Positions 12,777-17,533 of a stretch of DNA of 64,000 bases are shown piece after piece. The translations under genes and the position numbers were made by a program. Within the stretch, counting starts at the first letter, position 1; each line of letters starts with the position of its first letter. A model generated the notes under the pieces. The model had not been told where the DNA came from. It worked only from the letters and a program-made list of their open reading frames with translations, and did not search any database. Source of the stretch: Gemmatimonadaceae bacterium (GTDB lineage: Bacteria > Gemmatimonadota > Gemmatimonadetes > Gemmatimonadales > Gemmatimonadaceae); assembly GCA_040901985.1 (NCBI GenBank), contig JBBDYC010000008.1, forward strand, positions 144,490-208,489, given 5' to 3'.

Positions 12777-13450
12777 GGCGCCTGCGGGAGCGTGTAGTCC
12801 CAGATCCGCTCCGAGCCGTCGGGCTGCGAATAGCGCGCGCGGACGGTCTCACCCGGACGCGCGGTCACGATCCCATTCCGCGGCCGCGGCCCGCCGTGCG
12901 TGAATTTCAAGGCCCCGATGTAGTACTGGCCAAGGATCTCGAACGACGCCGGCTCGGTGGTGGCGTAGTGGAGGTTTGCCGAGCGCACGCCGGAGTACTG
13001 GCGGACGGCCAGCAGGGTCCGGTCGAGGCTGCCGAGCGTGTAGTAGAAATCCCGTCCGGGCACGTCGTTGCCGATCCAACGCCCGCCGAGCGACCGCACA
13101 ATCGCCTCGGCCTCGCGTGGGTCGCGGCCGTCGCGCATCGTCACGGTGAGCCGCTGGCACTCGTAGATCCACTTCCGGCGGTCGTGACAATAGCCGAAGC
13201 CGATGCGGACCACCTCGCTGTCGCCCGCGCTCGTGATGATGTCAATCGGGATCACCGTACCGACGGGGAGCCGATAGTCGAGGTCGAGCGGCTGGGCGGC
13301 GACGCCGATCAGTCCGCCGTCGGTGGCATCGCCCCAAAGGTAGATGTGCAGTTCCGGCCGGAGCTCAGGGGCGAGGAGGGGTGCCGTCGGTGCCACATCG
13401 CACGAGACGAGCGCAACGGCCAGCAGGAGGCCTGCGCCGCCACTCCTCAC
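12773..13450 (-). CDS. Hypothetical lipoprotein
   Basis: Lipobox-like LVSC after a hydrophobic stretch; GTGA overlap with the cupredoxin gene. Confidence 0.65.
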   Translation of the reverse strand: MRSGGAGLLLAVALVSCDVAPTAPLLAPELRPELHIYLWGDATDGGLIGVAAQPLDLDYRLPVGTVIPIDIITSAGDSEVVRIGFGYCHDRRKWIYECQRLTVTMRDGRDPREAEAIVRSLGGRWIGNDVPGRDFYYTLGSLDRTLLAVRQYSGVRSANLHYATTEPASFEILGQYYIGALKFTHGGPRPRNGIVTARPGETVRARYSQPDGSERIWDYTLPQAP

Positions 13451-13791
13451 TCGACGATGATCGTGCCCGACATTGCCGCGCCGTGGAGCGTGCAGAGGTA
13501 CGGGTAGCTGCCGACCGTCGGAAAGTCGCGCTGGTAGGTCCCGGACGACTGGTTGACCGAGGCGGGGCCGTCATCGAATGTGACATTGTGCAGCGCGCTG
13601 CCGGCGTTCCACGTCCAAGTCACCGTGGAGCCGCTCGGCACCCTGGAGGTGGACGGGCTGAAGAAGTTGTTGCCGACCTTGATCTCCGTGCTTGTGCCGC
13701 TGCCGCCGGTGATGACGCCGTCACCGCAGGCGGCCAGCGCCGCGACCACCACCATCGCACCGAGTACTCGGCGAATGCGCATTGCGTCCAT
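13447..13791 (-). CDS. Plastocyanin/azurin-family cupredoxin lipoprotein
   Basis: GGAGG RBS; LAAC lipobox; HNVTF and YLCTLHGAAM type-1 Cu ligands (H, C, H, M). Confidence 0.85.
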   Translation of the reverse strand: MDAMRIRRVLGAMVVVAALAACGDGVITGGSGTSTEIKVGNNFFSPSTSRVPSGSTVTWTWNAGSALHNVTFDDGPASVNQSSGTYQRDFPTVGSYPYLCTLHGAAMSGTIIVE

Positions 13792-13823
13792 TGCCACCTC
13801 CGGAGATGGAGTCTGGGCAGACG

Positions 13824-13852
13824 TTGACGGCGCGCGCAAGGCCGTGTATCGT
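13824..13852 (+). promoter_or_regulatory. Sigma70-like promoter for the leader peptide/phhA transcript
   Basis: TTGACG-17 nt-TATCGT; the leader ATG lies 7 nt after the -10 box. Confidence 0.65.
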
Positions 13853-13859
13853 GAGGAAG

Positions 13860-13952
13860 ATGCGCACCACCACTACCCCCGCGACGTATTCGTACGTCAG
13901 CACCTACGCACCCCGTGACCCGGGGCGTGGAGCTTGGGGTGTGCGCACGTAA
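13860..13952 (+). CDS. Putative Tyr-rich attenuator leader peptide MRTTTTPATYSYVSTYAPRDPGRGAWGVRT
   Basis: 30-codon ORF with 3 Tyr codons within 7 codons, between the promoter and an intrinsic terminator, upstream of phhA. Confidence 0.7.
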   Translation: MRTTTTPATYSYVSTYAPRDPGRGAWGVRT

Positions 13953-13977
13953 CGACGCGCAACGACCGATTCCTCCG

Positions 13978-14009
13978 CGGCCCGTGGACCTCCACGGGCC
14001 GTTTTTTTT
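13978..14009 (+). terminator. Intrinsic terminator in the phhA leader (attenuator)
   Basis: cggcccgtgg-acct-ccacgggccg perfect 10-bp stem followed by T8. Confidence 0.9.
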
Positions 14010-14033
14010 CGTCCCTCAGCCGAGAGCACCCCC

Positions 14034-14813
14034 ATGCAGCCCCATCCAGATCACGCCGCGCCGTCCGTCGTCGCCTCCGAGGCGCTCCCCGCGTTCGTCG
14101 AGCAGCGCTACGCGGCGTACACCGACGAGGAGCACGACGTCTGGGGGATCCTGTACGCGCGGCGGATGGCGGCGCTCGAGGAGACCGCCAGCCGGGTCTT
14201 CCTGGATGGCGCCGAGCGAATTGGCCTCGCGCCCAACCGTGTGCCCGAGCTGGCCGAGGTGAACCGGCGGTTGGGGCCGACCACTGGCTGGAACGCCGTC
14301 GGGGTGGGCGGCTTCATCCCAGCCGCCGGATTCTTCCAATGCCTCGCGCAACGCCGCTTTCCGACGACGCTGATCGTGCGGCCGCGCGCGCAGCTCGATT
14401 ACCTCCCCGAGCCGGACATCTTCCACGACGTGTTCGGGCACGTGCCGCTCCACGCCGACCCGGTCTTCGCCGATTTCCTGCAGCGCTTCGGCGCGCTGGC
14501 GGCGACGGCCACCACCGAGGCGGAGACGACGGCGATGGCGCGGCTCTTCTGGTTCACCGTCGAGTTCGGCCTGGTGCGCGAGCGCGGTGCGACGCGGATC
14601 TACGGCAGCGGGTTGATTTCGTCGCACGGCGATGCCGCCAACGCGCTCGGCCCTGCCTGCGACCGGCGCCCGTTCACGCTCGACGCGGTGATCGGCCAGC
14701 CGTTCGAGATTGACCGGCTGCAGGACGTGCTCTTCGTGGTGGAGTCGTTCGACCAGCTCTTTGAGGCGGTGGAGGCGCTCTGGGCGCGGCGCGGCGGCGG
14801 GGGCGCGCGATGA
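14034..14813 (+). CDS. phhA: Phenylalanine 4-monooxygenase
   Basis: LDYLPEPDIFHDVFGHVP and WFTVEFGL iron ligands (H, H, E); IYGSGLISS. Confidence 0.93.
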   Translation: MQPHPDHAAPSVVASEALPAFVEQRYAAYTDEEHDVWGILYARRMAALEETASRVFLDGAERIGLAPNRVPELAEVNRRLGPTTGWNAVGVGGFIPAAGFFQCLAQRRFPTTLIVRPRAQLDYLPEPDIFHDVFGHVPLHADPVFADFLQRFGALAATATTEAETTAMARLFWFTVEFGLVRERGATRIYGSGLISSHGDAANALGPACDRRPFTLDAVIGQPFEIDRLQDVLFVVESFDQLFEAVEALWARRGGGGAR

Positions 14814-14853
14814 AGTTGCTCCGGCCTCCGGCGCGGACTAGGTTGCGCGGGGC

Positions 14854-15171
14854 ATGACTCCCTCCTCCGACGCCCGCCGCCAGTTGCTCGGCGCGGCGAA
14901 GAAGTTCCTGCTCGACTCGCCGAAGGCGCCGTCCGTGGCGCCGGTCGTCCCGCCGCGCCTTACGCCCGCCGCCCTGGAGAAGATCCCGATGTCCCGCTCC
15001 CGCGACCGCATCCTCGCCAACCTCGAGGAGATGTACACCGAGGCCTTCCAGCGGGCCAAGGAATCGGGCGACGACGCCCAGATGGCGACGCTCGACTTTG
15101 CCTACCGCCGCGAGCAGCTCTATTTCGAGATCCTGCTCGACGTGCGCGATGCCGTCGAGCGGAAGGGCTGA
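14854..15171 (+). CDS. Hypothetical protein
   Basis: 105-aa helical-looking ORF with typical codon usage. Confidence 0.7.
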   Translation: MTPSSDARRQLLGAAKKFLLDSPKAPSVAPVVPPRLTPAALEKIPMSRSRDRILANLEEMYTEAFQRAKESGDDAQMATLDFAYRREQLYFEILLDVRDAVERKG

Positions 15172-15196
15172 GGACGCACGGTCGCCGGACGCGCCG

Positions 15197-15403
15197 ATGC
15201 TCCGCCTGATCGTCAACGCCCGCATCGCGACCGGTGATCCCAGGCGCCCGTGGGCCGACGCGCTGCTGCTCGACGGGGACCGGGTGATGGCGATCGGGGC
15301 GAGCGCCGAGCTGCGCAAGCGCGCCCGGGCGGCGGACGTCGAGGTCGTGGATGCGCAGGGGGGCGTCGTCGAACCCGACGGCGCCCCCTACGTCACCCGG
15401 TGA
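15197..15403 (+). CDS. Small protein resembling the N-terminal beta module of YtcJ-like amidohydrolases
   Basis: LIVNARIATGDPRRPWADALLLDGDRVMAIG...VVDAQG; no catalytic barrel follows. Confidence 0.55.
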   Translation: MLRLIVNARIATGDPRRPWADALLLDGDRVMAIGASAELRKRARAADVEVVDAQGGVVEPDGAPYVTR

Positions 15404-15424: not shown

Positions 15425-17533
15425 TCAGAACGCGGTGAGCTCCTCGAAGGCCCGCGCGAAGTCCGCCACCTGCGGCAGGATCGCGTCCTCGAGGGACGGG
15501 GCGTAGCCGACGAAGGTGTCGGTGCTCGCCACGCGCTTCACCGGCGCGTCGAGCCAGGCGAAGCAGTCGTCGGCGATCCGCGCCGCGATCTCAGCGCCGT
15601 ACCCCCACGAGATTGAGTCCTCGTACGCCACGAGCGCGCGGCCGGTCTTCCGCACCGACGCATAGACTGCCTCGCGGTCCCACGGCGCGAGCGTGCGAAG
15701 GTCAAGCACCTCGACCGCGATGCCCTTCTCCTCCTCGACCTGGTTGGCGGCGGCGAGCGCGCGCTGCACGGTGGCGCCGTAGGTCACGACCGTTGCATCG
15801 CGCCCCTCCTTCACGACCCGCGCCTTGCCGAACGGAATCATGAAGTTCGGGCCCGGATAGGCGGACTTGTTGTAGGTCTGGCGGTAGAGGTGCTTGTGTT
15901 CGAGGAAAATCACCGGGTCGTCGCAGCGGATTGCCGTCCGCAACAGTCCGTTGGCGTCGAGGGCGTTGCTGGGGCAGACGACACGGAGTCCGGGGCAGTG
16001 CGTGAAGAGCGAGGCGCCGGTCTGCGAGTGGTAGATCGCGCCACGGATGTAGCCGCCGTACGTGGTCCGGACCACCACCGGCGCGGCGAAGGCGTTGTTC
16101 GACCGCCAGCGCATCGTCGCCAGCTCGTCGCGCAGCTGCATGTAGGCCGGCCAGATGTAGTCGAAGAACTGGATCTCGACGACCGGCTTGAAGCCGCGGA
16201 GCGCCATCCCGATGGCGCGGCCGATGATGTTGGCCTCGGCGAGGGGCGAGTTGTAGACGCGCGTGCCGCCGAACTCCTTCTGCAGCCCCCACGTCACCTT
16301 GAAGACGCCGCCCTTGCCCTTGACCTTGCCGAGGTACTCCTCGCGCGAGACGTCGGCCACGTCCTCGCCGAAGACCACGATCGTCCCGTCGCGCCGCATC
16401 TCGTCCTTCATCGCCGCGTTGAGGAGGTCCACCATCGTCGTCGGGTCGCCGGAGAAGTGCGGGTCGTCCTCGGTGTCGAATTGCTCGCCGGTCGGGTCCA
16501 CGTCGGGCGAATACACGGCGAACGGCACCGTCGAGGGGTCGGGCTGCGGCTGGGCGAGCGCATCGTCAGTGGCCGCCAGCACCTCGGCATCCACCTCCTC
16601 GTGCAGCTTCGCCAGCTGCGCCTCGGTCACATAGCTCTCGTCGAGCAGCCACTTGGGGAACGTGACGAGCGGGTCGCGCGCCGCATCGGCGTTCCGTTCC
16701 GTGTCGGGGCGGTACATCACCTCGTCGTCGGAGAGCGAATGTGAATAGGGGCGGATGACCTTGGCGTGGACGAGCGCCGGTCCCTTTCGCTCCCGCGCGT
16801 AGGCGACGGCCTTCTGAATCACGTCATACGACGCGAGGAGGTCGCAGCCGTCCACCTCCTGGACGAGGAGTCCGGGGAACGACGCGACGAGTTTGGAGAT
16901 CGAGCCGCCTGCGGTGTTGACCTCGACCGGGACCGAGATGGCGTAGCCGTTGTCCTCGACGAGGTAGACGACCGGCGCCTTGAGGTTGCAGGCCGAGTTG
17001 AGCGACTCCCAGAACTCACCCTCGGACGTGGTGCCGTCGCCGGTGGTCACGAGGACGACTTCGTCCTTCCTGAAGTCGTCCTTGATGCCGAGGGTCTTGG
17101 CGCGGAGCACGGCCTCGGCGGAGCCGACCGCCTGCAGGAACTGCGTCCCGGTGGGGGACGAGGTGGAGACGATGTTGAGCTTCCGGTGGCCCCAGTGCGA
17201 CGGCATCTGGCGGCCGCCGGAGTTGGGGTCGATCGCTGCGCCGACGGCGGAGTAGAGCATCTCGGCCGGCGTCATCCCGAGCTGCAGGCAGAGCGCGCGG
17301 TCGCGGTAATACAGGTAGAACCAGTCGTGGGCCGGCTTGAGGACCATCCCGGCGGCGGTGAGCACGGCCTCGTGGCCGGCGCCGGAGATCTGGAAGAAGA
17401 TCTTGTTCTGGCGCTTGAGCTGGATCTCCTTGTCGTCGAGGCGGCGCGACAGGAGCATCGTGCGGTAGGCGGCGACGAGCTGGTCCTTCGTGAGGCCGTG
17501 GGTCGCTCGGCGGGCCTTGGCGGAGGTGGCCAT
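15425..17533 (-). CDS. 2-oxoacid (probably branched-chain) dehydrogenase E1, fused alpha/beta
   Basis: SGAGHEA, GRQMPSH, TPP motif GDG...EDN, HSLSDD; beta part GEDVA, PLAEA, EIQFFDY, FLEHK. Confidence 0.92.

Follow-up and report, generated by a model that had tools for sequence, protein, structure and literature searches.

The closest described relatives of the leader reported here are the classical leader-peptide attenuators trpL, pheL-pheA, hisL, thrL, and leuL, whose mechanism is set out in PMC2659441. Table 3 of that source, citing Camakaris 1980, also lists aroF-tyrA of E. coli and Shewanella with a proposed "attenuator sensing tyr-tRNA" (PMC2659441), and a motif with Phe codons, uORFC-13-1, has been described before aroF in Acholeplasma (PMC8632094). 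In mycobacteria, leaderless short ORFs with polycysteine act as attenuators (bioRxiv 10.1101/834739). In Pseudomonas, phhABC is governed by the protein activator PhhR from a sigma-54 promoter and serves Phe and Tyr catabolism (PMC1173090); the accessible part of that paper also mentions putative attenuators before tyrA operons, with leader peptides unmentioned there. PMC3082878 and PMC4833913 yielded nothing relevant. Our search of the open full-text literature returned no Tyr leader at phhA and no attenuators in Gemmatimonadota, consistent with the initial annotation of this DNA, which knew of no Tyr attenuator described for phhA.

We analyzed a stretch of 64,000 nucleotides (hereafter the window) from the genome of a Gemmatimonadaceae bacterium, in which phhA, the gene for phenylalanine hydroxylase, is preceded by a Tyr-rich leader (Table 1). 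With a probability of roughly 0.9, this leader attenuates transcription through a translating ribosome that responds to the supply of charged tRNA-Tyr, so that phhA would be transcribed when Tyr is short. This was also the reading of the initial annotation, and it is supported by conservation, by covariation in the terminator and the 1:2 helix, by a fold scan, and by related leaders whose codons match the pathway they precede. The leader is apparently an unpublished Tyr variant of classical attenuation, a mechanism class that is itself old.

Table 1. Positions in the window of phhA and of the elements of its leader.
Feature	Positions	Strand	Details
Sigma-70-type promoter-like site TTGACG-17-TATCGT	13824..13852	+	-35 at 13824-13829, -10 at 13847-13852
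Leader peptide ORF (uORF), 30 codons, likely leaderless	13860..13952	+	ATG 7 nt past the -10 box
Tyr codon cluster, predicted stall site	13887..13907	+	2-5 Tyr in each of 35 leaders
Segment 1	13906..13915	+	Partner of segment 2 in the 1:2 anti-antiterminator
Segment 2, antiterminator strand	13919..13932	+	Conservation and folding; covariation not above shuffles
Segment 3, 5' arm of the terminator with its preceding bases	13973..13987	+	Pairs with segment 2 in the 2:3 antiterminator
Intrinsic terminator, 3:4 hairpin and T8	13977..14009	+	-23.7 kcal/mol; covariation
phhA, phenylalanine 4-hydroxylase, 259 aa	14034..14813	+	NF008877; relatives with solved structures

The promoter-like site, the 30-codon uORF with its Tyr codons and late Trp, the terminator with T8, and phhA were all recovered where the initial annotation had placed them, and the likeness that it drew to trp, his, and phe leaders extends to the product-rich uORF, the 1:2 helix (−13.5 kcal/mol, 13905–13930), and the 3:4 terminator. 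Tyr stands at uORF codons 10, 12, and 16 and Trp at codon 26; when the intergenic region was shuffled 3000 times with its dinucleotides preserved, a uORF with three Tyr in eight codons never arose. The promoter-like site is the sole one in 13300–15200, where shuffles would yield 0.1. The terminator hairpin (13977–14002) has a perfect 10-bp core (13978–14001), or 11 pairs counting the closing G-U, and is followed by T8 at 14002–14009. The phhA start codon lies 24 nt past the end of this element, leaving a putative ribosome-binding site outside the hairpin. Given that a terminator-like site by itself is not above chance at this locus (1 found against 1.0 expected), the case rests on conservation. 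An Rfam search of 13500–14300 produced no leader family among its five weak matches (E 2.1–4.9).

PhhA scored 306 bits with NF008877 (phenylalanine 4-monooxygenase), well over the cut-off of 247, and 251 with TIGR01267, just under the cut-off of 264.75. Its best relatives with solved structures are bacterial phenylalanine-4-hydroxylases (E 1.5e-55), and its nearest named relatives are from Gemmatimonadota; family membership thus predicts that it converts Phe to Tyr. A divergent gene for a cupredoxin-like lipoprotein with weak halocyanin/plastocyanin matches lies on one side (13447–13791, − strand), and a 105-aa ORF without an NCBIfam match lies downstream of phhA (14854–15171, + strand). Because these two neighbors were matched only in loci of the same genome among the loci compared, we did not count them as parts of the system.

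A PhhA match was found in 30 of the 61 related genomes. We defined a leader as an ATG-initiated ORF of 15–45 codons with at least two Tyr within nine codons, followed by a hairpin and a T run, and applied this rule to all 110 phhA loci, where it was satisfied at 35 (34 of them distinct) and at none of the 75 others. The carriers are assemblies of Gemmatimonadaceae, Gemmatimonadales, and Longimicrobiales, together with one labeled Thermoanaerobaculia (Acidobacteriota; L048), whose phhA and leader group with the Gemmatimonadota clade, perhaps through transfer or mis-binning. No leader was present at the Acidobacteriaceae and Phycisphaerales loci or in a second Gemmatimonadota PhhA clade (42–50% identity). 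In one relative (L023, G026:C75), phhA appeared as two overlapping matches, reflecting a frameshift or an assembly error, with the leader intact. In a FastTree phylogeny of 82 PhhA sequences, with those from outside Gemmatimonadota thinned to about a third and L023, L035, and duplicates left out, all 40 leader-bearing rows fell in one clade (support 0.75); six members of this clade are leaderless, which we read as losses. Tyr makes up 12.1% of leader codons and 1.4% of codons in the genome's long ORFs, an enrichment of about 9-fold, and Phe and Trp contribute 0.5% and 0.9% of leader codons, respectively. Both Tyr codons are in use across the 35 leaders (64 TAC, 48 TAT), the pattern to be expected if selection acts on the encoded residue.

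The uORF looks leaderless. A TTG-type −35/−10 pair, by a loose pattern, precedes 29 of the 34 distinct phhA leaders, and the ATG falls 5–10 nt past a −10-like box in 27 of these 34 and in 37 of the 40 further leaders described below. Transcription usually starts 6–8 nt after the −10 box. At this distance the transcript would start on the uORF or right beside it, with no room for a ribosome-binding site.

Covariation was strongest in the terminator: 98.7% of cells in alignment A1 were paired and 17 had changed on both sides, with 0 of 500 shuffles as good, and the 1:2 helix (13906–13915 with 13921–13929) was 87.6% paired with seven double-change cells (2 of 500 shuffles for score), although kinship among the leaders can inflate both tests. 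The 2:3 antiterminator was paired in 86% of cells, and its covariation did not rise above shuffles (57 of 500 for pairing, 178 of 500 for score) because the helix is nearly invariant; mismatches are frequent at two of its ten pairs. Support for 2:3 is indirect: all 34 leaders share the same bases at 13919 and 13922, both third codon positions, although the encoded residues vary, and one of the two pairs in 2:3 only; leader L045 carries joint changes in segments 2, 3, and 4. Thus, of the conserved Tyr codons and covarying stems that the initial annotation had looked to in an alignment of upstream regions from relatives, the codons, the terminator, and the 1:2 helix stood, and the 2:3 helix did not surpass shuffles.

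The antiterminator itself had to be redrawn. The initial annotation had paired cgtggag (13926–13932) with the 3' arm of the terminator, but segment 2 forms a duplex of −24.1 kcal/mol with the 5' arm in the window versus −16.3 kcal/mol with the 3' arm. The 5'-arm duplex is the stronger one in 34 of 34 leaders, and the 3'-arm pairing is also less conserved (72% of cells). The better partner is 13973–13987, and we rejected the 2:4 pairing, since the complementarity to 13990–13996 is a by-product of the resemblance between segment 2 and the 5' arm.

We then folded each leader as a transcript ending where the 5' arm ends, masking bases up to 13 nt beyond the start of the A-site codon, an assumed ribosome footprint. 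In this comparison with and without a ribosome, which the initial annotation had suggested, the ribosome made the difference: when the last Tyr codon occupied the A site, the 2:3 core formed in 33 of 34 leaders, versus 5 of 34 without a ribosome. It also formed in 31–32 of 34 for stalls at codons −3 to −1, in 30 at +1, in 6 at +2, and in none from +4, the loss beyond +2 following from the mask itself. The last Tyr lies 17 nt from the segment-2 core in 24 of the 34 leaders. The late Trp listed in the initial annotation, 10 codons past the last Tyr, is not conserved, and a stall there yielded no antiterminator in the scan, which rules it out as a sensor. When full leaders were folded to equilibrium, the terminator formed in 34 of 34, the stall mask included, so the switch must be kinetic, with read-through resting on the order of folding. 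Kinetic switching is usual for attenuators.

From this anatomy, we propose that the transcript begins with the uORF ATG, or with a few bases ahead of it, and that a ribosome loads on the leaderless message. When Tyr is plentiful, the ribosome would pass the Tyr codons and cover segment 2, or 1:2 would re-form, so that 3:4 could fold and transcription would stop at T8. When Tyr is scarce, it would stall on the Tyr codons and cover segment 1, leaving segment 2, which begins about 15 nt beyond the point where the last Tyr codon starts, free to form 2:3, and the polymerase would read into phhA. Together with PhhB, encoded at an unlinked locus, PhhA would then convert Phe, likely imported in this genome, to Tyr.

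The same scaffold occurs before other amino acid genes. We searched a covariance model over the 61 relatives and 151 genomes of the phylum, placed phhA and tyrA near the hits with PF00351 and PF02153 matches, and examined 47 hits, of which 40 had a uORF and an amino acid gene identified by Pfam. The seven dropped hits were a contig-end duplicate (L120), three without a matching uORF (L124, L126, L160), one with a Phe/Tyr uORF before a gene without identification (L158), and two before purA that matched in the terminator-like part only (L159, L171). At the latter two loci, a similar hairpin and T run follow a short ORF without a codon cluster and are possibly the terminator of the upstream gene.

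The retained leaders differ in their codons. Seven new phhA leaders, one from the unpublished genome G193, together contain 25 Tyr and no Phe codons; four before tyrA or chorismate mutase-tyrA contain 14 Tyr and 1 Phe; seven before DAHP synthase followed by tyrA contain 27 Tyr and 8 Phe; 13 before other DAHP synthase genes contain 30 Tyr and 36 Phe; one before a chorismate mutase-prephenate dehydratase (pheA) fusion contains 4 Phe and no Tyr; and eight before hisG contain 50 His and 1 Tyr. Leaders of DAHP synthase genes are thus dominated by Tyr where tyrA directly follows and mix Phe and Tyr elsewhere. The codon cassette thus tracks the pathway product, and phhA is handled like tyrA; in five genomes (G002, G018, G080, G091, G115), phhA and a tyrA unit each have such a leader. 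That the cassette follows the product is our strongest argument for sensing of aminoacyl-tRNA and for an anabolic role of PhhA. The common terminator and segment-2 sequence suggests shared descent of these leaders rather than convergence.

Some of these loci have features of their own. The His-rich hisG leaders come from eight Gemmatimonadota genomes (L122, L125, L152, L161, L162, L167, L168, L172). Among the DAHP synthase leaders (L118, L119, L121, L123, L137, L139, L140, L146, L148–L151, L153–L157, L163, L164, L169), that of L150 begins with GTG. In L170 (535–2301), a pure Phe leader precedes a chorismate mutase-prephenate dehydratase-DAHP synthase fusion that runs off the locus. The model found no match in 20 control loci, including leaderless phhA genes and the DAHP synthase-tyrA operon of G032, and its best match upstream of 10 additional phhA genes had an E of no less than 0.14. 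The genome of the window had no second leader copy at a meaningful score; its DAHP synthase gene is without a leader, and hisG was not found in it. We consider it likely that Gemmatimonadota possess one homologous, modular family of leaderless attenuators, in which the cassette was swapped (Tyr, Phe plus Tyr, Phe, His) as the leader was copied before phhA, tyrA, DAHP synthase, pheA, and hisG, and in which the Tyr form is an undescribed sensor of Tyr-tRNA that marks PhhA as an anabolic source of Tyr, no other such source having been found in this genome.

The metabolic setting bears on this role. As the initial annotation had suggested, we checked the genome for tyrA and did not find it: at 99.97% completeness, profile searches gave no PDH_N or PDH_C match, and tblastn with the TyrA proteins of four relatives gave none either. 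Neither chorismate mutase family was matched. In relatives, aroH (chorismate mutase) follows mltG, as in G016 and G031; at the syntenic site here (G000:C12, about 15535–15585; L186:1236–1285) aroH is missing and the neighbors are 48 nt apart. Since chorismate mutase, like tyrA, was not found, Phe is likely imported. DAHP synthase, chorismate synthase, two PF00275 matches, prephenate dehydratase, and PhhB are present. Given the missing aroH and the lack of a hisG match, the organism may depend on an external supply of several amino acids. PhhA therefore likely makes Tyr from imported Phe in this genome, and here the biosynthetic role that the initial annotation gave it is likely; as a general explanation for leader carriers, absence of tyrA does not hold. 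No PDH_N match exceeded the cut-off in 18 of 23 carriers, but the same was true of 15 of 16 genomes of the genus without phhA, many of them incomplete, and in the phylum sample five of nine carriers have PDH_N (one of the five being the unpublished G193). We rejected a strict link between leader-controlled phhA and loss of tyrA, as several relatives carry both genes. Genes for Tyr catabolism form a cluster elsewhere in the genome, unlinked to phhA, with hppD, acetoacetate-CoA ligase, and a weak hmgA match (a weak match to TIGR01015 and none to PF04209). Tyr is thus probably also degraded in this organism by the hppD cluster, and PhhA may additionally serve breakdown.

A catabolic role is central to one alternative, in which the nascent peptide, of a conserved Y-Y-A-P-R-x-x-G-R type, senses a free metabolite in the manner of TnaC: it arrests the ribosome when free Phe (the substrate) or Tyr is present, and phhA is induced for catabolism. 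Downstream of the Tyr cluster the peptide is partly conserved (Ala-Pro/Thr-Arg, followed by Thr/Pro-Gly-Arg), as this alternative would have it, yet in the Thr/Pro-Gly-Arg stretch it is the nucleotide sequence that is fixed, with invariant third positions and residues that vary among 11 amino acids, and the stretch recurs in His leaders, while the number and spacing of Tyr vary freely. Likewise, the presence of hppD and the downstream catabolic cluster is offset by the lack of linkage between phhA and hppD and by near-identical leaders before tyrA and DAHP synthase, where substrate induction would be senseless. We therefore regard arrest by the nascent peptide as quite improbable.

A mixed aromatic sensor, responding to Tyr plus Trp or Phe, appears highly improbable for the window, whose cluster is Tyr only, with its Trp 10 codons later at a position where a stall leaves no antiterminator, and the low Phe and Trp content of the leaders in general also speaks against it. 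Such a sensor would fit the mixture of Phe and Tyr in DAHP synthase leaders and the Trp (8 of 41) and Phe (3 of 41) found in or beside the Tyr cluster of distinct phhA leaders. The Trp-bearing ones (L015, L021, L036, L045, L138, L142, L143, L165) could mean co-sensing of Trp at those loci. Finally, the dominance of 3:4 at equilibrium and the loss of the leader in six clade members would agree with a constitutive terminator and leaky read-through, the uORF being incidental or a vestige. However, this is scarcely credible in view of the Tyr enrichment, the fixed spacing to segment 2, the covariation of 1:2, and the codon identity that follows the pathway in the 33 non-phhA loci.

If attenuation by Tyr-tRNA is correct, the range of classical leader-peptide attenuators extends to tyrosine, and a bacterial phenylalanine hydroxylase is regulated for biosynthesis, the role it has in animals, in contrast to its place at the entry to catabolism in Pseudomonas. 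The Tyr, Phe, and His cassettes on one scaffold would form a natural series for the study of specificity change in attenuators, and the leader raises the question of whether a leaderless ribosome is coupled to transcription tightly enough to attenuate. It would also offer a compact candidate Tyr sensor and regulatory annotation for a poorly cultured phylum.

The phhA leader shares with the classical attenuators a product-rich uORF, the 1:2 and 3:4 helices, a predicted 2:3 helix, an intrinsic terminator, and a predicted stall that masks segment 1. It differs from them in its predicted sensing of Tyr, in an apparently leaderless uORF, in matching no Rfam family, and in its target, a pterin-dependent hydroxylase usually classed as catabolic. 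With the mycobacterial Cys attenuators it has in common a short ORF, apparently leaderless here, a run of codons for one amino acid, and a design repeated at several loci; there, the stalled ribosome frees a ribosome-binding site and the output is translational, whereas here the output would be an intrinsic terminator. The aroF-tyrA attenuation and uORFC-13-1 resemble the phhA leader in sensing aromatic amino acids in a 5' leader, but the available portions of those sources describe no Tyr-codon leader peptide and concern neither phhA nor Gemmatimonadota. In Pseudomonas, the same enzyme is placed under the protein activator PhhR, in contrast to the RNA leader predicted to answer Tyr shortage here.
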